Source of the DNA: an uncultured Lachnospiraceae bacterium
Lineage (GTDB): Bacteria; Bacillota; Clostridia; Lachnospirales; Lachnospiraceae
Assembly: GCA_910584585.1 (NCBI GenBank)
Contig: CAJUBP010000020.1
Coordinates: forward strand, 881 to 64,880
Direction of reading: 5' to 3'
Length of the DNA: 64,000 bases
A model generated the notes under the pieces. That model made no database searches. It was not told the origin of the DNA and saw only the letters and a program-made list of their open reading frames with translations. Below are positions 27,854 to 60,656 of this stretch, in pieces (position 1 is the first letter of the stretch; each line of letters starts with the position of its first letter). The position numbers and the translations under genes are program-made.

Positions 27854-27875
27854 AAATGGAATCCTTTCTATTGCT

Positions 27876-27929
27876 ATGTTTTCATCGTTTGTTATGTTTT
27901 CATCGTTTGTTATGTTTTCATCGTTTGGT
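27876..27929. repeat. Three tandem 18-bp repeats between the response-regulator and kinase genes
   Basis: ATGTTTTCATCGTTTGTT x3, with the last copy ending GGT. It reads NDENIT x3 in the kinase frame on the minus strand. Confidence 0.85.
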
Positions 27930-33833: not shown

Positions 33834-35360
33834 ATGGAGGGAAAATATAAGAATGTTCGAGCCTTATCATTATTTCTGGCAGGAATGGCTCTTATGACGA
33901 TGGCGTCCCGGGCGGCGGATCATTTCTTCATTCCACGGGTGTCGGTGGTTTTCCCGGAAGAGAGAAAACTGGAATATCACGCGGAAATTCCGGGACAGGT
34001 AGAGGCAGAGAAGGAACAGGCCGTCTATTGCAGGGAAAATCTTCGGGCGGCTTATGTTCCGGTCCGGGAGGGGGATTTGGTGCAAAAAGGGGATCTGCTG
34101 TTCGCGGTGGATTTGGACAGCCTGAACCTGCAGATACAGGAGTTGGAAGAGGAGATCAGGAAACTGAACCTGCAGATAGAAGATCAGAAACTGGCGTATG
34201 AGCAGCAGGAAGAACAGCAGAACCGGGAATATCAGAGGGCCAAAGAGGATTATCATGCCGCCGTGACAAGGACCCAGAGCCAGGTGAATCAGGCAAAGTT
34301 GGAATTGGAGCAGGCCAAGGAAGCCCTCCTTGCCCATGAGAACGCAAAACCGGAGGAAAGCGGGCAGAGAAAAGAAAGGGAAAAGACATCTGACCAGACA
34401 GAAGAGAATCCTGCGGAGACAGAAAAATATCAGACGGCACAGAAAGAGCAGCCGGAAAAATGGAATCAGCGGTGGGAAGAAGAGCTTTGGGCAGAATGGA
34501 ATCAGAAGCAGGAAGAGTCCTCGGAAGAATGGAATCAACAGCAGGAAGATCCTTTGGAGACATGGAACCAGAAACAGGAGGAACTTTCCCGGCAGTATCA
34601 GGAGAAAAAGAAAGCATATGAAGAGTTTTCAGCCGCTGGGGAGGAAGCGGTTCGGACAGCCGAAAGGCAGCTGGAAGACGCAGGAGAAAAGAAAGTTCAG
34701 GATCATTCCATCGATTTGCTGAAAATAGAAAAACAGAAACTGGAAGATTCCCTGGAGAATTACAGAGAGCTGAGCCGGGAAGAAGGAAAAATTTACGCTG
34801 AGACAGATGGACAGGTGAAGACTTTAACTATTTCTGCAGGAAGCGTTACCGGAAGTGAGCCGATCATGATTCTGGAAGATTTCAGCCAGCCTTTCCGGTT
34901 TGAAGGAAATGTGGAAGAGGCGGCGGATCTGTGTATAACGGAAGGAATGGAAGGCGTTCTGACGATGGATAAGGGCAGAACAGAAATAAAAGGAGTGCGG
35001 ATCTCATCCGCAGTGACAGAAGAAGGGAACTGCCGCGTGACTGCGCTTTTGGATTCTGTTTGGCCAGACGGAAGCAAAGACGCTTTCTTAAGCGTCGCAA
35101 AGGAAAGCCAGTGGTATGAGACAACGGTTCCGCTGTCTGCGCTGCATCAGGGGGAAAAGGAAAATTATGTCATCCGGATACAGGAGAAAGAAACGATTCT
35201 TGGCATAGGATATGCCGCGGAGTATGTGCCGGTAACGGTTTTGGAAAAAAATGCGGAGTACGCAGCTGTGGAAGGGGGACTTTCCAAAGAAGACAGAATC
35301 GCTGCCGATTCTGACAGAAGCATAAGGGAGGGGGAAAGGATACGGATTGTGAAAGAATAG
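33834..35360 (+). CDS. HlyD/membrane-fusion-like protein with a long coiled coil
   Basis: N-terminal TM segment, a biotinyl-lipoyl-like VREGDLVQKGDLLFAVD, a ~250-aa E/Q/K-rich coiled coil, and a beta-rich C-terminus. Confidence 0.55.
   Translation: MEGKYKNVRALSLFLAGMALMTMASRAADHFFIPRVSVVFPEERKLEYHAEIPGQVEAEKEQAVYCRENLRAAYVPVREGDLVQKGDLLFAVDLDSLNLQIQELEEEIRKLNLQIEDQKLAYEQQEEQQNREYQRAKEDYHAAVTRTQSQVNQAKLELEQAKEALLAHENAKPEESGQRKEREKTSDQTEENPAETEKYQTAQKEQPEKWNQRWEEELWAEWNQKQEESSEEWNQQQEDPLETWNQKQEELSRQYQEKKKAYEEFSAAGEEAVRTAERQLEDAGEKKVQDHSIDLLKIEKQKLEDSLENYRELSREEGKIYAETDGQVKTLTISAGSVTGSEPIMILEDFSQPFRFEGNVEEAADLCITEGMEGVLTMDKGRTEIKGVRISSAVTEEGNCRVTALLDSVWPDGSKDAFLSVAKESQWYETTVPLSALHQGEKENYVIRIQEKETILGIGYAAEYVPVTVLEKNAEYAAVEGGLSKEDRIAADSDRSIREGERIRIVKE
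34461..34590 (+). repeat. Four spaced WNQ(K/Q/R)-type repeats within the coiled coil
   Basis: TGGAATCAG/TGGAATCAA/TGGAACCAG at 34461, 34497, 34530 and 34563, with a 33-36 nt period. Confidence 0.7.
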
Positions 35361-36226: not shown

Positions 36227-38389
36227 ATGAGAAAAGGAATCAGAAGAAAGATATGTTTGTTAGCGGCGGCAGCAGTAGTTACAGCGGGGCTGTGGGTTCC
36301 GGTGCCTGTTCTGGGCGCAGATGCAGGCATAACGGTTACGACCCGTGAAGAGTTTATGGAAGCTTTGAAACAGCCGGGCAGCCATATTATGGTACAGGGG
36401 CTTATTACCATTGGAAAAGAAACCGATACGGATCAGCGGATGCTCCCGGTAAAGATTCCGGCCGGAACAACTATCGAAGGAACTGCCGGAAGCAATTTAA
36501 ACTGCAGGTCGCCGGTTCAATTGGAAGGGGACAATGTTGTTTTCAGGAATATAAAATTGACCTTTGAATCCTCGAACGCTCTGGGCAGTGTTCCACATCG
36601 GGAAATTTTTCTGGCGGGCCACAGTCTGACGATGGATAATGTGCGGACATATCTGGAAGGGGGAGCCGATGCAATCGGTGGATTCGGCGGGACGGAAAAA
36701 GAACTGCTGCCGATAGTATATGCAGGGGGATATACCGGAACAGTGAACGGGGAGAATGCTTCTTTCACCCTGCAGAATTCCAATGAAGAGACCATGTTTC
36801 AGGGAATTTTTATGGGGCACGGGGCAGGCAGTGACAGAAAATCTCCCTATAAGGGGAACGCGCAGGTGAAATTAGACGGGAAAGCAATCGTTCGTGAGCC
36901 GATTGACTCCAGTGAGAACAGCTGGGCTTCTGTTGAAGTGATCGGCGGCCAGTACGGCACAAAAGCAATCAAATACCATGGAAATGAGAATACAACGCTG
37001 ACGCTGCGCCAGGGCATCATGGAAGAGGCGTCTGTGGAAGATATAGGGAATCTTGTGATAGAGAATGGCAGCTGTCTGGGCACAACAACAGGAACTTTGC
37101 AAAATGTCATATTGAAAAATGGCGGCTGCCTGGATCTCACCAAAGCGCCGAATCCGGTGATTGCCGGTAATTTTACAGGCGTTAGCGATTCGTTGGAGAA
37201 TCAGGGGCTTCTGGTTCTCAATCAAAATCTGAGCGAGGCATTGCGGATTCAGGGAACAGTTACCGGAATTACAAAGTTTCAGACGTATCATCGCCTGTTT
37301 CCGGGCACATTGCTTCCGGGCAGACAATACATTATAGCCGATCCGGCCAAGGCAGCGCGGGGAAATTTTGTTCTGCCAGAAAAGAATCTTGAAAACGGCT
37401 ATCGTCTGAATTACCGGGAAGGAGCCTGGATTCCTTGTTGGGAGGAAGATTATGAAGAACCGTCGGAAGAGGAAAAACCGCCAGTGACGCCGCCAGAGGA
37501 AGAGAAGCCGGAAATAACGCCGCCAGTGATGCCGCCAGAGGAAGAGAAGCCGGAAATAACGCCGCCAGTGACACCGCCAGAGGAAGAGAAGCCGGAAATA
37601 ACACCGCCGGTGACGCCGCCAGGGGAAGAGAAACCGGAAATAACGCCGCCGGCAGTGCCGCCAGAGGAAGAGAAACCGGAAGAAACACCGCCGGCACTGC
37701 CGCCAGAAGAAGAGACACTGCCGGGAAATGGGAAACCGTCAGTAACGCCGGCGGCTCATGTTCACAGATACATTCCGGTATTTGAGAAGGCCACTACGGA
37801 AAAAGACGGCGCCAGAATGAAACGGTGCAGCTGCGGCAAAATCTCAGAGCAGCAAAGCATTTACCGAATTCAGGATGTGAAACTGTTAACGGAGCGGATG
37901 GTTTACAGCGGAAGGAGCCGGAAACCGGAACTGAAAGTCATTGACAGGACAGGCAAAGTGATAGACAGAAGCCAGTATCAGGTTTCTTATCAGAATAATG
38001 TCAATGTAGGACAGGGAAAGGCAATCATTCGTTTCAGGGACAATTACAGCGGCAGCCTGGAAAAGAAATTTTTCATTGAACCGGAGCGGACCAGTTTGAC
38101 GGGGCTGAAGGCCAGATCCAAAGGATTCACAGTTAGATGGAAGAAACAGGCTGCTCAGACAGCAGGGTATGAGATTCAGTACTCCGCCAGCAGCCGCTTT
38201 TCAAAAAAGACAACCCGGACAATTACTGTGAAGAACAGGAAAACCACCTCGAAGACGATAGCAAAGCAAAAGCCGGGAAAGAAATATTATGTTAGAATCC
38301 GCGCTTATCAGCCAGTGAAAATCGAGGGAAGAACAGTCAGGATGTACTCAAAATGGTCGAAAGTGAAATCTGTGAAAACGAAAAAATAA
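36227..38389 (+). CDS. Secreted repeat protein: N-terminal beta-helix-like region, Pro/Glu-rich tandem-repeat linker, C-terminal Fn3/Ig-like modules
   Basis: Signal peptide MRKGIRRKICLLAAAAVVTAGLWVPVPVLGA, (PPEEEKPEITPPVT)n, and a basic C-terminus. RBS AAGGAG. Confidence 0.7.
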   Translation: MRKGIRRKICLLAAAAVVTAGLWVPVPVLGADAGITVTTREEFMEALKQPGSHIMVQGLITIGKETDTDQRMLPVKIPAGTTIEGTAGSNLNCRSPVQLEGDNVVFRNIKLTFESSNALGSVPHREIFLAGHSLTMDNVRTYLEGGADAIGGFGGTEKELLPIVYAGGYTGTVNGENASFTLQNSNEETMFQGIFMGHGAGSDRKSPYKGNAQVKLDGKAIVREPIDSSENSWASVEVIGGQYGTKAIKYHGNENTTLTLRQGIMEEASVEDIGNLVIENGSCLGTTTGTLQNVILKNGGCLDLTKAPNPVIAGNFTGVSDSLENQGLLVLNQNLSEALRIQGTVTGITKFQTYHRLFPGTLLPGRQYIIADPAKAARGNFVLPEKNLENGYRLNYREGAWIPCWEEDYEEPSEEEKPPVTPPEEEKPEITPPVMPPEEEKPEITPPVTPPEEEKPEITPPVTPPGEEKPEITPPAVPPEEEKPEETPPALPPEEETLPGNGKPSVTPAAHVHRYIPVFEKATTEKDGARMKRCSCGKISEQQSIYRIQDVKLLTERMVYSGRSRKPELKVIDRTGKVIDRSQYQVSYQNNVNVGQGKAIIRFRDNYSGSLEKKFFIEPERTSLTGLKARSKGFTVRWKKQAAQTAGYEIQYSASSRFSKKTTRTITVKNRKTTSKTIAKQKPGKKYYVRIRAYQPVKIEGRTVRMYSKWSKVKSVKTKK
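37478..37715 (+). repeat. About 5.5 tandem 42-bp repeats encoding PPVTPPEEEKPEIT
   Basis: Direct reading of CCGCCAGTGACGCCGCCAGAGGAAGAGAAGCCGGAAATAACG and its variants. Confidence 0.9.
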
Positions 38390-43367: not shown

Positions 43368-45359
43368 ATGGCTGTGGATTATGGGAAATGCGCAAGAGAG
43401 ATCTATGAAACGCTGGGCGGCAAAAGCAATCTGGTAAGCGCCGCCCACTGTGCCACCAGGCTTCGTCTGGTCACGGTGGATAACAGCAAAATAGACATGA
43501 AAAAATTGGAAAATATTGACGGAGTCAAAGGCGTGTTCAGCAACAACGGACAGCTTCAGTTGATTATCGGCACGGGAACCGTCAATAAAGTATATGAGGA
43601 ATTTTTAAAGGTCAGCGGAATGACAGCGGCGACAAAAGAAGAAGTAAAAGCTGCCGCCGCCGCGAAGCAGCCTTTGTTTAAGCGGATGATCAAAGCCCTG
43701 GGAGATGTGTTTGTCCCGATTCTCCCTGCGATTGTGGCCTCAGGATTAATGATGGGCCTGGTGGAAGCGCTGGGAAAAGCAATACCGGCTTTTGCAGGCA
43801 GCGACTGGTACGGGATTTTGGACTTGCTGGCTAATACGGCATTTACGTTTCTGCCGATTCTGATTGCCATCTCGTCTTCCCGGGTATTCGGGGGAAATGT
43901 TTTTCTGGGAGCTGTGGTGGGCATGGTTATGATCCATCCCAGTTTAATCAATGCATGGTCGGTGGGTTCCATGGACGCGGCAGAAATTCCCGTTTGGAAT
44001 CTCTTTGGATTTACCATCCGCCAGGTGGGATATCAGGGGCATGTCATTCCCGTTGTCATCGCGGTTTGGCTGATGTGTAAGATTGAACAATGGTTACATA
44101 AACATGTGCCGGAGATGATTGATTTATTTGTGACTCCGCTCTGTACGGTGCTGGTGACGTCATTTATTACCCTTGGGGTGATCGGACCGGTATTTTCCAT
44201 GGCAGAGAATTATGTGCTGGATTTCGCGGGGTGGATGATTACCTTTGGGCACGGCATAGGCGCTATGATTATGGGGGCCTTGTATCCCTTTACGGTAGTC
44301 TGCGGCATCCACCATATGTACAATGTAATTGAAGCGGGCATGCTTGCGGCAGAAGGCGGAGTGAATATCTGGATGCCCATTGCCTCTGCGGCGAATTTTG
44401 CCCAGGGGGCTGCGTGCCTGGCAGTGGGATTGAAGGCAAGAAGCATGAAAACAAAATCCGTGGCGATTCCCTCTTCCCTGTCAGCGGCTCTGGGCATCAC
44501 GGAACCGGCGATTTTCGGCGTAAATCTTCGGTTTTTAAAACCGCTGATCTGCGGTTCCATCGGCGGGGCGGCAGGAGCTTTGCTGGGTTCTCTGTTCCAG
44601 ATCGGGGCCACCTCTTACGGGGTGACGGGGCTTCCGGGATTCTTGATTACGTTGGATCACACGGTTCCCTACGTGATTGTGCTGGCAGTGTCTTTCGGAA
44701 TCTCTTTTGCGCTGACCTGGGTTACCTGGAAAGAAGACGCGGCAGAGACTGAGACGGGAAACGCGAAACAGGGACAGCAGGACGCGGAAAGCCCGCAAGA
44801 GCTGACAGGACAGAAGGGCGCAAAAAGCCAGGAAACGCCAGGGCAAAAAGGCGCAAAAAGCCAGGAGACTCCAGAGCAAACAGGCACAGAAACCCAGGCG
44901 GTTACATTAGAGACGGCGCTCTTTGCGCCGGTAAAAGGCAATGTGATTTCCAGAGAAGAAATTCCGGACGCCACCTTTGCCTCTGGGGTTTTAGGAGACG
45001 GCGTGGGAATTGAGCCGGAGACAGCGGAGGTTGTGGCGCCTTTTGACGGAGTGATCGCGTCGGTGACAGATACCTTTCACGCGGTGGGAATTACGGGCCC
45101 AGCCGGTATGGAGCTGCTGATTCATGTGGGAATTGACACTGTAAATATGAACGGCGACGGCTTCCAGGTATTTGTATCGGAAGGAGAACAAGTGAAGGCC
45201 GGCCAGAAGCTGATTGTTTTTGATATTGACAAAATCAAGGCGGCCGGATACAGCCCCACAACGGCGGTGCTTTTGACCAACAGTGAAGATTATCCGAACT
45301 TTAAGATTTTAAAGACAGGGAAAACGGAACAGATGGAAAAGCTGTTTACAGTAGAATAG
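43368..45359 (+). CDS. PTS EIIBCA component, glucose/sucrose/beta-glucoside superfamily
   Basis: EIIB motif CATRLRL, a polytopic EIIC, a repeat linker, and an EIIA-Glc domain (GDGVGIEP...HVGIDTV). Confidence 0.85.
   Translation: MAVDYGKCAREIYETLGGKSNLVSAAHCATRLRLVTVDNSKIDMKKLENIDGVKGVFSNNGQLQLIIGTGTVNKVYEEFLKVSGMTAATKEEVKAAAAAKQPLFKRMIKALGDVFVPILPAIVASGLMMGLVEALGKAIPAFAGSDWYGILDLLANTAFTFLPILIAISSSRVFGGNVFLGAVVGMVMIHPSLINAWSVGSMDAAEIPVWNLFGFTIRQVGYQGHVIPVVIAVWLMCKIEQWLHKHVPEMIDLFVTPLCTVLVTSFITLGVIGPVFSMAENYVLDFAGWMITFGHGIGAMIMGALYPFTVVCGIHHMYNVIEAGMLAAEGGVNIWMPIASAANFAQGAACLAVGLKARSMKTKSVAIPSSLSAALGITEPAIFGVNLRFLKPLICGSIGGAAGALLGSLFQIGATSYGVTGLPGFLITLDHTVPYVIVLAVSFGISFALTWVTWKEDAAETETGNAKQGQQDAESPQELTGQKGAKSQETPGQKGAKSQETPEQTGTETQAVTLETALFAPVKGNVISREEIPDATFASGVLGDGVGIEPETAEVVAPFDGVIASVTDTFHAVGITGPAGMELLIHVGIDTVNMNGDGFQVFVSEGEQVKAGQKLIVFDIDKIKAAGYSPTTAVLLTNSEDYPNFKILKTGKTEQMEKLFTVE
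44808..44873 (+). repeat. Two tandem 33-bp repeats encoding the GQKGAKSQETP linker between EIIC and EIIA
   Basis: GGACAGAAGGGCGCAAAAAGCCAGGAAACGCCA / GGGCAAAAAGGCGCAAAAAGCCAGGAGACTCCA. Confidence 0.8.
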
Positions 45360-57454: not shown

Positions 57455-58165
57455 TTATTTGGAAGGCTTTTCTCCCATTCTGCCGTGGAGATAGCGGGCA
57501 AAATACACAAAAGGCGTATCCGCCAGGCTGGTGACCAGGAAAATTACATAGCTGGACAGAGCAATGGACAGAAGCGTTGCGGTATTGTGGGTGCCCAGGA
57601 ATGCGCCGAAGGTAAATAAAACCGTATTCAGAAGCTGGGATATCATGGTGGAACCGTTGTTTCTCAGCCACAGGAATTTTTTCCGGTCGCCGAATTTTTT
57701 CTCAGTGAACGCCCACCACTTATGATAGGCCCAGACGTCAAACAGCTGAACAATCACATAAACTGCAATGCCCACAAGCATAAGCCTGGGAGTGTTGGAG
57801 AATACGGTGCAGATGGCAGGGGAGGCAAAGTCATTTTCATTGGGGCGGTACAGCATCCAGGACTGGCTGATGACAACGAAAATGACAGAGGTCGCGATGC
57901 CCAGATAAACGGCCTTTTGCGCAGATTTTTTCCCGTAAAGCTCACTTAAAATGTCGGTGATCAGAAACGTGGAGGCAAACAGGATATTGCCCAATGTCAT
58001 TTCCATTCCGAAGGCGGTAACCACAATCAGAACCTCGATATTGGCTGCAATTGTGGCGACTATGGTCCACAAATAAAGGCCCTGTTCCTGAAAGAGATAG
58101 AACAAAACCAGGACTGCGGAAAAGGTAACAATTAAAGATACAAGCAATAAAATTTCATTCTGCAT
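57455..58165 (-). CDS. yhhQ: Queuosine-precursor transporter, YhhQ/DUF165 (VUT) family
   Basis: Polytopic protein with FASTFLITDILSELYG and WLRNNGSTMISQLLNT motifs. Start taken at ATG 58165, 9 nt after GGAGGCG. Confidence 0.75.
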   Translation of the reverse strand: MQNEILLLVSLIVTFSAVLVLFYLFQEQGLYLWTIVATIAANIEVLIVVTAFGMEMTLGNILFASTFLITDILSELYGKKSAQKAVYLGIATSVIFVVISQSWMLYRPNENDFASPAICTVFSNTPRLMLVGIAVYVIVQLFDVWAYHKWWAFTEKKFGDRKKFLWLRNNGSTMISQLLNTVLFTFGAFLGTHNTATLLSIALSSYVIFLVTSLADTPFVYFARYLHGRMGEKPSK

Positions 58166-58889
58166 GAGTGACAACGCCTCCTACGCCGAAAGCAGTATTT
58201 TCCATTAAAATATCTACCCGGCAGTTTTCAATATATTTTGGATATAGTTTCTGGGAAAAAATGCGGATCACCTCTGGATCCGGCTTGACGGGCTTGCCGT
58301 TTTCCTGCATAATATTGACGCAGACCCGCTCAAAATATTTAAGGCCGGTTTGGATATCAGAATCCATGCTCTCGGCCGTCTGTCCTGGAATGCCCTGCAG
58401 GAGACAGACCTCATCAAAATATTCGGCAATTTCTTCCGGAGAATCCGCCGTAATTCCCTTATCCAGATAGCTTTCCCGAAACAGAGAATCAAAAGTTTCC
58501 ACGCCGGTTTTTATTTTTAATTCAATTCCATGGGCGGCAAACTGTTTCCGGAAATCAGCAATTTCAGCTCTGTGCCGCCAGTGGCACTCAAAATGAACCT
58601 GCCCGATCTTCTGCTTGGAGCAGACTTGTTGGATCAGAGCCACAGTCTGTTTGTCCAGATCTACAAAACTGCCGGAATTAATCACCTCCAGCCTGCCGTG
58701 GATTCCGGTGACCTTTTCCAGCTGCTTCCGGTTTAAGGCAAAGTTTTCTGCCTCGTCTTTGGCAGAATCCAGGTGGTAATCGCAGAACCGGCACCGCCGC
58801 CAGGCGCAGCCCCGTCCCCGGAGCATTACAATTTCCCGGGGATTTTTTTCATCAATCACCGCATAGCGGTTAGGATTAAAATCTTTCAT
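58155..58889 (-). CDS. Radical SAM-like protein, possibly a queuine-lyase-type salvage enzyme (context only)
   Basis: Cys cluster GCAWRRCRFCDY near the N-terminus. Sits in an operon with yhhQ behind a preQ1 riboswitch. Confidence 0.5.
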   Translation of the reverse strand: MKDFNPNRYAVIDEKNPREIVMLRGRGCAWRRCRFCDYHLDSAKDEAENFALNRKQLEKVTGIHGRLEVINSGSFVDLDKQTVALIQQVCSKQKIGQVHFECHWRHRAEIADFRKQFAAHGIELKIKTGVETFDSLFRESYLDKGITADSPEEIAEYFDEVCLLQGIPGQTAESMDSDIQTGLKYFERVCVNIMQENGKPVKPDPEVIRIFSQKLYPKYIENCRVDILMENTAFGVGGVVTHAE

Positions 58890-58929: not shown

Positions 58930-58957
58930 ATAAAAAATGAGCACGCAGAACGTGCCC
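58930..58957 (-). terminator. Intrinsic terminator acting as the preQ1 riboswitch expression platform
   Basis: On the minus strand: GGGCACGTTCTGCGTGCTC followed by ATTTTTTAT, about 40 nt upstream of the radical SAM start. Confidence 0.65.
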
Positions 58958-59017
58958 AAAGAAAAGAACGGGATATTCCTGCTAAGATACGCGCAGAATA
59001 GTTCCGTTCCGACAATT

Positions 59018-59058
59018 CCCTAGTTTTGTTTAGAGACAGGATGGTCACGAACTGTCTT
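59018..59058 (-). promoter_or_regulatory. preQ1-I riboswitch aptamer
   Basis: Minus strand AGACAGUUCGUGACCAUCCUGUCUCUAAACAAAACUAGGG, compared with the recalled B. subtilis queC aptamer AGAGGUUCUAGCUACACCCUCUAUAAAAAACUAAGG. It has a 5-6 bp P1, a C before the 3' strand, and an A-rich tail ending ACUAGG. Confidence 0.7.
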
Positions 59059-59168
59059 ATGTAATTGATTCAGGCACAAAGGGAAGCATCAGCTTATGCA
59101 GCCAAACGCACAGCCCTCTGAGCAACAACGGTATTCTAGCATATCAAATTCCCAATTGCAAGAAAAAC

Positions 59169-59196
59169 TTGTGAAAATTTCATAAAGTGGTATAAT
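59169..59196 (+). promoter_or_regulatory. Candidate cbi operon promoter
   Basis: TTGTGA, 16-nt spacer ending TGG (extended -10), then TATAAT. Confidence 0.5.
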
Positions 59197-59210
59197 CATT
59201 ACCATGAGGA

Positions 59211-59423
59211 GGGACCCAGCCCAAATCAATACAGAATCCACAAAGTAGAAAGCTGGGAGGAGCCCTGATGGTTTACCCGTAGGGACCCAGCCCAAACCAA
59301 TACAGAATCCACAAAGTAGAAAGCTGGGAGGAGCCCTGATGGTTTACCCGTAGGGACCCAGCCCAAACCAATACAGAATCCACAAAGTAGAAAGCTGGGA
59401 GGAGCCCTGATGGTTTACTCGGA
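59211..59423 (+). repeat. Three tandem 71-nt repeats forming the cbiD leader
   Basis: Units at 59211, 59282 and 59353. Unit 1 differs from unit 2 by 1 nt. Unit 3 diverges only in its last ~8 nt, where it provides the cbiD RBS. Confidence 0.95.
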
Positions 59424-59435
59424 GGAACAAAATCA

Positions 59436-60656
59436 TTGACAGAATTAAACAATCCATCCCCCGGAGTTTCCCCATGGAAAACCGGTCTGGAGAATTACAG
59501 CAAAACCATAGACAATAAGAAGATGAGATTCGGCTACACCACCGGAAGCTGTGCCGCCGCAGCAGCGAAGGCAGCCGCTTACATGCTGCTGACCGGCCAG
59601 GAGACAGGCTGTGTCAATCTCATCACGCCGAAAGGAATTCAGCTGCATCTGGAAATCCATGATATCAGACAGGAACCGGAGGCTGTATCCTGCGCGGTTG
59701 AGAAGGACGCCGGCGATGATCCGGACATCACAAACGGAACCTGGATCTACGCCAGAGTCTCCAGGCAGAAAGAAAAGGGCATCCAAATAACCGGAGGCAC
59801 AGGCATCGGCATTGTCACAAAGCCCGGCCTGGAACAGCCGCCGGGCAGCTATGCCATCAACTCAGTGCCAAGGCAGATGATTGCAGAAGAACTGCGGCAG
59901 CTTTGCGCGCAGCAGGAGTATGCCGGAGGACTGAAGGTGGAATTATCCGTCCCCAGGGGGGAAGAACTGGCAGTACATACCTTCAATCCCAGGCTGGGCA
60001 TCGAAGGAGGAATTTCCATTTTAGGCACCACCGGGATTGTGGAGCCTATGAGCGAAGCTGCCCTTGTGTCCAGTATTCGTCTGGAGTTAAACCAGCAGAT
60101 CCAAAGCGGCAGAAAGAGCCTTCTGGTGACGCCGGGCAATTACGGACAGGATTTTTTGAAACAGAATCTGCCGGTTTCTCTGGAGAGGGCGGTCAAATGC
60201 AGTAATTTCATAGGGGAAACCATTGATATGGCCGCGGAACTTGGCGCGGAACGTATCCTGTTTGTCTCCCATATCGGGAAATTTATCAAAGTAGCGGGAG
60301 GAATTTTTCAGACCCATTCCCGGAACGCAGATGCCAGAATGGAGATTTTAACGGCAAACGCAGTACTGGCAGGGGCCGGGCAGCCGCTGCTTACAGAGCT
60401 GATGCAGGCGCTGACCACGGAAGAGGCCCTGCGTTTGTTGGAAGAAACAGGATATCTGGGAAAGACCATGGAACAGGTGACGCAACGCTTAGCTTACCAT
60501 CTGAACCGGAGAAGCTATGGAAAAATAGACTGCGGCGCCATTGTATTTTCCAGCGAATACGGGAAAAGAAATCACGGCAGCGGTGAGCTGGGGCGGACAG
60601 AAAACGCGGAAGTGATTCTGGAAAAAATTTTGACGCAGGATGGAGTACTAGGATGA
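59436..60656 (+). CDS. cbiD: Cobalt-precorrin-5B (C1)-methyltransferase
   Basis: 406 aa. GYTTGSCAAAAAKAA motif. TTG start after GGAGGA, with an alternative ATG at 59523. Confidence 0.85.
   Translation: MTELNNPSPGVSPWKTGLENYSKTIDNKKMRFGYTTGSCAAAAAKAAAYMLLTGQETGCVNLITPKGIQLHLEIHDIRQEPEAVSCAVEKDAGDDPDITNGTWIYARVSRQKEKGIQITGGTGIGIVTKPGLEQPPGSYAINSVPRQMIAEELRQLCAQQEYAGGLKVELSVPRGEELAVHTFNPRLGIEGGISILGTTGIVEPMSEAALVSSIRLELNQQIQSGRKSLLVTPGNYGQDFLKQNLPVSLERAVKCSNFIGETIDMAAELGAERILFVSHIGKFIKVAGGIFQTHSRNADARMEILTANAVLAGAGQPLLTELMQALTTEEALRLLEETGYLGKTMEQVTQRLAYHLNRRSYGKIDCGAIVFSSEYGKRNHGSGELGRTENAEVILEKILTQDGVLG

Follow-up and report, generated by a model that had tools for sequence, protein, structure and literature searches.

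Introduction

The leaders of cobalamin biosynthesis (cbi/cob) operons usually carry the cobalamin riboswitch RF00174. The leader analyzed here precedes cbiD in a 64,000-nt stretch of DNA from an uncultured Lachnospiraceae bacterium (positions 881 to 64,880 of the forward strand of contig CAJUBP010000020.1, assembly GCA_910584585.1; the whole stretch is called the window, and its own coordinates are used throughout). It resembles that riboswitch only in its position upstream of a cobalamin biosynthesis operon, since it shows no covariance-model match and no B12 box, and its elements are far smaller, repeated, and also found beside unrelated genes. An initial annotation of the window had described three near-identical 71-nt repeats in this leader and had interpreted them as an undescribed translational control device of the cbi operon. 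The analysis reported here indicates that the array very probably belongs to a generic repeat family, being a local threefold tandem amplification of a strand-specific hairpin repeat that is widespread, though uncatalogued, in gut Lachnospiraceae.

Several described systems share features with this element. BOX of Streptococcus pneumoniae, REP/BIME, ERIC, and STAR are likewise short (40-80 nt), multicopy, intergenic, hairpin-forming, and modular; BOX-type repeats also have variable tandem internal modules (boxB is repeated), form mosaics, lie in leaders or between cistrons, and can affect the expression of their neighbors. However, there is no sequence similarity between these repeats and the present element, in which helices covary around an invariant purine-rich core with G-U combinations far exceeding A-C combinations, and which carries GGAGG and AUG at a fixed distance from -10 boxes; no mobilizing enzyme was found in the flanks examined, nor were terminal repeats or target duplications seen by eye.

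STAB-SD function and the protection of transcripts by ribosomes against RNase J1 are established for Bacillus. The leaders concerned (cry3A STAB-SD, aprE, and hbs) are similar to the present one in having, near the predicted 5' end, a GGAGG distinct from the one at which the main gene starts, together with a 5' hairpin. STAB-SD, however, is a single short sequence and not a multicopy, tandem, or 45-50-nt structured repeat, and its effect was shown experimentally, whereas the likeness drawn here is one of sequence geometry. Type III antitoxin RNAs (ToxI, CptI, and TenpI; tandem 34-48-nt repeats, frequent in Clostridia) share the head-to-tail arrangement of two to six near-identical units of about 40 nt after a promoter, but in those systems a terminator and a ToxN, CptN, or TenpN gene follow, whereas here the array is followed by cbiD or another housekeeping gene and units are dispersed genome-wide. 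A type III toxin-antitoxin array was rejected for the cbiD leader, as the repeats are directly followed by the Shine-Dalgarno (SD) sequence and UUG start codon of cbiD with no toxin gene, and housekeeping genes are found at the other sites. Finally, CsrB/RsmZ sponge RNAs also reiterate structured units with GGA, and some arrays of the present family appear to stand alone and to end at a terminator; here, however, GGA is in an internal loop between long helices and not in apical loops, and most copies are linked in cis to genes.

Results and discussion

Three units of a hairpin repeat in the cbiD leader

Tandem Repeats Finder detected a tandem repeat at 59210-59425 of the plus strand, on which all features of the leader lie, with a period of 71 nt, 3.0 copies, 97% matches, no indels, and a score of 411. 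Together with a check of the sequence, this bears out the three 71-nt repeats proposed ahead of cbiD. A 48-nt core pattern has three occurrences in the window, all of them within the array, against a shuffle expectation of 0.00. The anatomy attributed to the unit, a hairpin followed by an SD sequence and an AUG, was found in each of the three, and the stem CCCAGC/GCUGGG is present at 59215-59220/59252-59257, 59286-59291/59323-59328, and 59357-59362/59394-59399.

Unit 1 (59201-59272) is the sole complete family member of the array. Its outer helix, P1, pairs ACCAU (59201-59205) with AUGGU (59268-59272) and, after a G, AGG (59207-59209) with CCU (59264-59266). An internal loop follows, with AGGGA (59210-59214) opposite AGGAGC (59258-59263), and then the inner helix, P2, formed by the first of the stems given above and closed by an apical insert of 31 nt (59221-59251). 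RNAfold applied to 59197-59290 yielded identical helices for this unit. Units 2 and 3 are derived. In unit 2 (59273-59343), the 5' arm is cut to ACCCGUAGGGA, with loss of CAUGAGGA, whereas the 3' arm (GGGAGGAGCCCUGAUGGU, 59326-59343) is intact; the apical insert spans 59292-59322. Unit 3 (59344-59414) has the same derived 5' arm, and its 3' arm (GGGAGGAGCCCUGAUGGU, 59397-59414) diverges beyond that point into the ribosome-binding site of cbiD.

These differences are reflected in the matches to R1, a covariance model built from an alignment of 30 distinct units of other loci, with the window excluded. R1 matches unit 1 at 59204-59269 with 40 bits (E = 3e-10), which places this unit in the family, and it matches units 2 (59281-59334) and 3 (59352-59405) with 17.8 bits each (E = 0.006), through the core only, owing to the reduction of their 5' arm from ACCAUGAGGAGGGA to ACCCGUAGGGA. 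A homologue of the 31-nt apical insert occurs in a Petralouisia muris element at an unrelated locus, and the insert is therefore a subfamily marker and no local invention.

The array also leaves its mark on assemblies. Two contigs encoding an identical CbiD both break within its last unit, and many short-read contigs break within the array, starting inside the last unit, as is the mark of an unresolved repeat. In practical terms, the element is a nuisance that breaks short-read assemblies and yields spurious ORF calls.

A covarying hairpin with an invariant purine-rich core

The canonical unit reads NNCAUGAGGAGGGACCC, then a stem-loop, then GGGAGGAGYCCUGAUGNN; the GGAGG SD core lies on both arms. 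In the alignment, P1 consists of five variable pairs plus AGG:CCU, and P2 of CCC:GGG plus three to five variable pairs. The internal loop between them, AGGGA opposite AGGAGY, is invariant. The apex is variable, tolerating from 3 to about 45 nt, that is, from a GNA triloop to inserts of some 45 nt, with C-GNA-G (GAA, GCA, GGA, and GUA triloops) as the favored form.

Helix cells are paired in 98.6% of cases, compared with 30-47% when the partners are slid, and compensatory changes on both sides were found in six of the 14 pairs. Covariation scored 0.397, as opposed to 0.125 for shuffles, of which none out of 500 reached the observed value. Over 73 distinct units, G-U combinations far outnumber A-C combinations (37 versus 5), and thus folding, be it of RNA or of single-stranded DNA, is confined to this strand. 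The six core pairs (AGG:CCU and CCC:GGG) are invariant except for a single G-U, and therefore stand outside the covariation test and are assumed; the chosen register is supported by a subfamily with a continuous CCUAAGG/CCUUAGG lower helix (loci L101 and L123). The folding energy of the leader and of single units was no different from that of shuffled sequences (z = -0.2 to -1.2) and is uninformative, so that the structural case rests on covariation.

In addition to the stem, an H-type pseudoknot between the loop segment AAACCA and a downstream UGGUUU had been suggested. The complementarity does exist; nevertheless, a loop-tail match of 6 nt is reached by 56-57% of shuffled loops, and UGGU is already the 3' strand of the covariation-supported P1, a competing pairing. 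In the nearest homologue of this apex, at locus L021, the pairing is partial; as judged by eye, it has four A-U pairs together with one C-C mismatch.

A structure of this kind invites comparison with functional RNAs. Two covarying helices around some 25 invariant nucleotides, with an insertion-tolerant apex, could belong to a new ligand-sensing RNA, such as a riboswitch for a global signal, or to a small self-cleaving ribozyme, with P1 and P2 framing the core. The SD sequence lies inside that core, so ligand binding could gate translation, and the element resembles twister and hammerhead ribozymes in being distributed over many gene contexts and at times arranged in tandem. We nevertheless consider such an identity quite unlikely, given that the downstream genes have no common theme, that riboswitches do not typically occur as near-identical tandem copies or as decayed half-units, and that no Rfam ribozyme or riboswitch was matched even at E <= 10. 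A hammerhead was rejected in particular: CUGAUGA occurs only where P1 supplies the A (variants include CUGAUGC, CUGAUU, and CUUAUG), there is no conserved GAAA, and Rfam gives no match.

The purine-rich core was also inspected for a kink-turn or C/D box and this reading was set aside, as the G-A positions misfit a standard kink-turn with a 3-nt bulge and the would-be bulge CAU is paired by covariation; the fit was made by hand, so the exclusion of a kink-turn-like geometry is not rigorous. In Rfam, the unit matched nothing but archaeal C/D-box small RNAs, at chance level and through its AUGAGGA...CUGAUG arms (sR33 with 18 bits and E = 0.13, sR5 weakly), for instance at 2922-2990 of L070.

A repeat family dispersed among unrelated genes of gut Lachnospiraceae

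A 20-base pattern common to two variants was searched in 185,579 species genomes and returned seven stretches of DNA. Three unlinked ones are in MGBC000170, including the cbiD site of that genome, and one each was found in Petralouisia muris, in a Eubacterium metagenome-assembled genome, and in an uncultured Lachnospiraceae. The seventh, inside a coding region of a Wenzhouxiangellaceae genome, was dismissed as a chance match. A metagenome scan with the pattern ATGAGGAGGGACCC N{9,39} GGGAGGAG recovered at least 120 loci, and the matches listed come mostly from the human and mouse gut. From the genome matches and the metagenome matches listed, at least 62 distinct units at no fewer than about 30 distinct sites were counted, and all sites are intergenic.

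The genes downstream of the element are unrelated. According to Pfam, they encode HPr (two orthologous sites), aspartate carbamoyltransferase (OTCase/pyrB), a GltD-like protein, RfbC, an ECF sigma factor, a RelA_SpoT small synthetase, a DAO oxidoreductase, an LD-carboxypeptidase, a DUF1653 protein, and a 2'-5' RNA ligase-like protein; the element also adjoins leuS and rpoD. A device tied to cobalamin biosynthesis and replacing a B12 riboswitch, as initially proposed, is at variance with this generic multicopy intergenic distribution: with the same element beside unrelated genes at about 30 sites, the outcome is the one that the initial annotation had itself set as counting against its proposal, and the cbi-specific reading is not supported. 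On the other hand, the claim that the element is undescribed holds. Neither the canonical copies nor the window unit have a match in Rfam 15, the core strings occur in no paper of the literature searched, and keyword searches returned no description of such an element. The family is thus apparently an undescribed member of the interspersed structured intergenic repeats, with unusually good covariation.

Repeats of the REP/BIME or BOX type are short, imperfectly palindromic, and present in many intergenic copies per genome, often in clusters. Multicopy, intergenic, and clustered occurrence was observed here, with the count of three sites in MGBC000170 referring to exact matches of the pattern. 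This raises the possibility that the element is selfish or neutral repetitive DNA of the REP, BOX, or miniature inverted-repeat transposable element (MITE) kind, whose hairpin would matter only for its own propagation or persistence; the cbiD array would then be a neutral variable-number tandem repeat, and its SD sequence, AUG, and upstream ORFs (uORFs) incidental. Apart from the multicopy intergenic distribution, several observations fit this explanation, namely the mosaics with a second module (GCAGACGCC...GCGUCUGC), the frequency of truncated or half units (as in the L035-type arrays and L090), the polymorphic copy number, the presence of one subfamily at unlinked loci in different species, the copies that are antisense to their neighbors, and the loss or decay of the element in close relatives in which operon layout is unaffected. 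By contrast, terminal inverted repeats and target-site duplications were not seen by eye (no systematic search for duplications was made), and the plasmid collection PLSDB, the INPHARED phages, and IMG/VR contain no copies. Furthermore, compensatory helix changes from site to site around an invariant core point to selection acting on a single strand in its folded form and not to recent copying, the element has been kept at the orthologous ptsH site of two species whose HPr proteins have diverged, and its placement relative to -10 boxes is tight. Selfish or neutral DNA is therefore regarded as an improbable explanation, albeit the most serious of the alternatives. A MITE as such was rejected, as the sequence of the outer helix differs between sites and inspection by eye, again short of a systematic search for target-site duplications, showed no duplicated flank.

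The second hairpin module, composed of GCAGACGCC, an inner hairpin, and GCAUGCGUCUGC, was observed directly 3' of the motif at several unrelated loci, including those of pyrB, pyrE, and an ECF sigma factor (L027, 3770-3830; L037, minus strand, about 106-155; L079, 9719-9775; L080; and L124). Half-units and this module often accompany the motif, and their juxtaposition suggests mosaic repeat clusters like those of BOX or BIME.

Expansion and decay of the array at the cbiD site

Homologues of CbiD place the window in the Lachnospiraceae. The gene itself (59436-60656; cobalt-precorrin-5B C1-methyltransferase; Pfam CbiD, E = 8e-101) starts with UUG at 59436-59438 and heads a cbi cluster that continues with two TP_methylase genes (tetrapyrrole/corrin methylases) and cbiG (CbiG_N/mid/C). 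A promoter scan predicted a sigma-70-type promoter at 59169-59196, composed of the -35 box TTGTGA, a 16-nt spacer, and the extended -10 box TGgTATAAT (TG at 59188-59189, hexamer at 59191-59196). The SD sequence of cbiD, GGAGGA, lies at 59421-59426, 9 nt before the UUG, and is kept in relatives without the repeat.

The promoter is conserved in L003 and L006. In L006 (MGBC000170), whose CbiD is 82% identical, the promoter and the start context (AUCAUUGACAG) are the same, and the leader contains six 42-nt units (GGGACCCAGCCCUGCAGGGAGGAGUCCUGAUGAUUUCCCGGA). In L003 to L005, with a CbiD that is 83% identical, the promoter is kept and only a decayed remnant, ACCAUAAGGAGGGCCCAAGC...CUGCUGUUACACUGGAGGAAUAAAAUCAUUG, is found. 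More distant relatives (L012 to L019) have short, unrelated cbiD leaders. Copy number at the cbiD site is thus variable, as had been suggested from the near-identity of the units: the window has 3 x 71 nt and L006 has 6 x 42 nt, and in L003 a single unit is left as a decayed remnant. At one other locus, one, two, or three units were found across samples.

The absence of a cobalamin riboswitch from the leader, one of the initial observations, was confirmed by an Rfam scan, in which RF00174 was not found: no family reached its gathering score anywhere in the 64-kb window, and on the plus strand of 59000-59600 there were no matches even at E <= 10. Likewise, no cobalamin riboswitch was detected within 1.5-3 kb of cbiD in six related loci (among L003-L019). 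Since relatives whose cbiD leaders lack the repeat also lack the riboswitch, the repeat replaces nothing. The absence of the riboswitch is a trait of the clade, independent of the repeat, and the clade seems to run its cbiD operon from a leader that is short and has no riboswitch. As far as the cbi operon is concerned, the outcome is deflationary, as nothing points to new B12 or cobalt sensing.

The history of the site can be sketched from these comparisons. An ancestor of the clade would have gained one copy immediately behind the -10 box, in the leader of cbiD, and this copy would later have expanded in some lineages (3 x 71 nt and 6 x 42 nt) and decayed in others.

Placement of the element relative to promoters and genes

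Twenty strong -10-like hexamers were found in the 60 nt upstream of 28 sites, and half of them (10/20) end no more than 2 nt from model column 1, six of these ten with an upstream TG. With the -10 box so placed, the predicted transcription start site (TSS) falls on CAUGAGG, also in the window, where spacing from the -10 box puts it at about 59203-59204, the first bases of the element. GGAGG then starts 4-6 nt downstream of this predicted TSS. At about six other sites, the element follows an upstream co-directional gene, beginning 1-5 nt past its stop codon. The 5' end TTGNCA was also considered as a -35 box and rejected, because a -10 box is missing 17 nt downstream of it.

The majority of copies share the orientation of the downstream gene and are located 30-190 nt before its start. 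With respect to orientation, 14 co-directional site keys and four sites behind a divergent promoter were counted, versus about five distinct antisense sites. The family is common in human and mouse gut Lachnospiraceae; its members are placed exactly at predicted transcription starts and contain ribosome-binding sequences, and their copy number differs from strain to strain.

One group of antisense copies forms arrays. The stretch at about 2870-3110 of L035, which separates the ilvC terminator from leuS, is occupied by a highly polymorphic array that combines full units with 5' half-units (CAUGAGGAGGGACAUUGC) and 3'-arm units. This array belongs to an abundant human-gut species, and the same locus is present in more than 40 metagenome contigs (e.g., L031, L036, L046, and L141). 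The array is antisense to both ilvC and leuS and ends at a terminator hairpin, and it may be a stand-alone RNA. No T-box was found for leuS on the strand opposite the adjacent arrays.

Arrays of two to six units, among them the apparently stand-alone ones that end at a terminator hairpin between ilvC and leuS, could also be accounted for by a trans-acting protein that recognizes GGA or GGAGG in structured RNA, be it CsrA or another global regulator. The element would be its binding platform and, when located in a 5' leader, would place the gene under its control, and the terminator-ended arrays would act as sponges similar to CsrB/RsmZ. Each unit offers four GGA triplets in a purine-rich core between variable helices, and the diversity of the target genes is that of a global regulon. 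Known CsrA sites, however, present GGA in a hairpin loop, whereas here it is in an internal loop between two long helices; moreover, no protein partner was identified, and no flagellin gene or other known CsrA target is among the downstream genes. A protein-binding platform is accordingly thought rather unlikely.

Upstream ORFs and the start of cbiD

The mini-ORFs of the initial annotation were found as described: GGGAGGAG is followed, after 5 nt, by AUG GUU UAC CCG UAG at 59268-59282 (mini-ORF 1, MVYP-stop, with GGAGG 7 nt upstream of its AUG) and identically at 59339-59353 (mini-ORF 2). The third uORF, at 59410-59439, reads MVYSEEQNH-stop, and its UGA (59437-59439) overlaps the UUG of cbiD by 2 nt. 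The start site on the 3' arm, GGAGG followed after 7 nt by AUG, is a feature of the alignment and is complete in most copies, with GUG or AUU in a few. By contrast, the MVYP-stop ORF, for which ribosome stalling at Pro-stop had been postulated, is private to this array: its CCG-UAG arose from the shortening of the 5' arm in the derived units, canonical tandem junctions read MVYHEEGP..., and L006 reads through.

The overlap of a uORF stop with the cbiD start is real, and it recurs in L006 (MIPDSLLEEQYH-stop, and a longer in-frame version of up to 82 codons). As the unit of L006 has 42 nt, a multiple of three, a single frame crosses all six units and stops on the same UGA overlapping the UUG; it is annotated as a gene for an 82-aa protein. 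This protein call (MISRRDPALQGGVL repeated, at 2756-3004 of L006) is the in-frame reading of the six units and probably a spurious entry in public databases.

The generality of such coupling was assessed by asking whether the reading frame set by the start codon of the last unit extends into the downstream start or stays open until no more than 10 nt before it. This was so at 8 of 13 sites, compared with 5 of 26 cases for the other two frames (Fisher p = 0.012; p = 0.031 without L006, which is orthologous to the window). The proposed termination-reinitiation coupling is thus upheld in part, by the UGA/UUG overlap and by a frame tendency that is suggestive in a small sample; this tendency is the sole gain in support for the idea. 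As a universal feature of the family, uORF coupling was rejected, because five of the 13 sites have uORFs that stop 40-86 nt short of the gene and one subfamily has no AUG.

These results also bear on the device as first conceived, namely a cbi-specific regulator with pseudoknot and Pro-stop mini-ORFs that would sense cobalamin, cobalt, or an intermediate. In its favor are the missing cobalamin riboswitch, the SD-AUG mini-ORFs of the units, and the overlap between the last stop codon and the start of cbiD. Against it, the same element occurs by unrelated genes at about 30 sites, and the cbiD leaders of relatives are riboswitch-free whether they contain the repeat or not. The pseudoknot complementarity does not exceed chance, and neither L006 nor the canonical junctions have an MVYP-stop ORF. 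This is the least credible of the explanations considered, with hardly any chance of being correct.

A possible leader module

The explanation favored here, which we give an even chance of being correct overall, combines the amplification of a generic repeat with its action as a portable RNA leader module. The repeat is not linked to cobalamin and, in this explanation, senses neither cobalamin nor cobalt. The mechanism, put forward tentatively and with rather less confidence than the explanation as a whole, would be as follows. Because the element is proposed to lie at the 5' end of the transcript, its GGAGG and SD-AUG sites might bind 30S subunits. This binding could shield the leader from 5'-end-dependent decay, in a STAB-SD-like manner, and initiate translation of the short uORFs, and at cbiD the overlap between the UGA of the last uORF and the weak UUG would allow terminating ribosomes to be handed over to cbiD. 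Changes in copy number through unequal recombination or slippage may tune these effects. Should the element prove to influence how stable mRNAs are or how they are translated, many housekeeping genes of a major gut lineage would be shaped by a portable expression module.

Several observations weigh against this explanation. About five of some 28 sites are antisense to both neighbors (ilvC/leuS, dnaG/rpoD, an ABC transporter, and others), and therefore a pure 5'-untranslated-region role cannot cover the whole family. At promoter-adjacent sites, P1 is intact and covarying, although a TSS located 6-8 nt after the -10 box would exclude its distal 5' strand from the transcript. The CCUAAGG/CCUUAGG subfamily (L101 and L123) is the one without an AUG in the arm, and the frame statistic, besides leaving five sites with uORFs that end short of the gene, is drawn from 13 sites only. 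Relatives run cbiD from the same promoter and SD sequence without any unit, so that the array is dispensable. In addition, the TSS, ribosome binding, and stabilization are all predictions made from sequence. With distal P1 retained upstream of the predicted TSS, antisense copies, and relatives devoid of the element, four alternatives stay alive: selfish DNA, a protein platform or sponge, an aptamer or ribozyme, and a structure formed in single-stranded DNA.

The last of these is suggested precisely by the conservation of distal P1 even upstream of the predicted TSS and by the copies that are antisense to local transcription. The hairpin would work as single-stranded DNA, either as a recognition structure of the HUH/RAYT type or as a replication structure, and the favored apex, C-GNA-G, is a classic hyperstable DNA mini-hairpin. 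However, no transposase or RAYT gene was seen in the flanks examined, a role as DNA does not readily account for the placement relative to -10 boxes or for the SD-AUG geometry, and orientation favors the sense strand of the downstream gene. A role as DNA is deemed very unlikely.

A broader and bolder interpretation is that the family constitutes a new class of functional structured RNA in abundant gut Lachnospiraceae, defined by the core AGG / AGGGA / CCC ... GGG / AGGAGY / CCU within a 45-50-nt hairpin. Its invariant purine-rich core would be a specific site of binding, for small ligands, 30S subunits, or a global regulator that binds RNA, or else of catalysis, for self-cleavage. Many mRNAs would carry the element in cis at their extreme 5' end, and stand-alone RNAs of several units would act in trans, with tandem copy number as an evolvable gain control. 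This interpretation is speculative, and we consider it unlikely, slightly more so than the selfish-DNA explanation.

Other features of the window and of related contigs

A candidate preQ1-I riboswitch was observed on the minus strand of the window at 59060..59014, oriented divergently from the cbiD promoter region, with 28.9 bits against a gathering score of 39 (E = 8e-4). The aptamer sequence is kept in L003, L006, L017, and L019. It is followed by a terminator-like hairpin (58958..58938, minus strand) and by two ORFs, 58889..58155 and 58174..57455, a 244-aa ORF without a Pfam match and Vut_1, a queuosine-precursor transporter of the YhhQ type. In one metagenome contig, a copy of the motif is separated by about 1 kb from a TwoAYGGAY RNA (Rfam RF01731, 65 bits; L033, 4329-4498), another orphan RNA of gut Clostridia with GGA loops. 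Further tandem repeats of the window are located at 37478-37715 (42 nt x 5.7), 34453-34579 and 44772-44898 (33 nt), and 27871-27927 (18 nt x 3.2), and the sequences of the longer ones suggest that they code for protein repeats.

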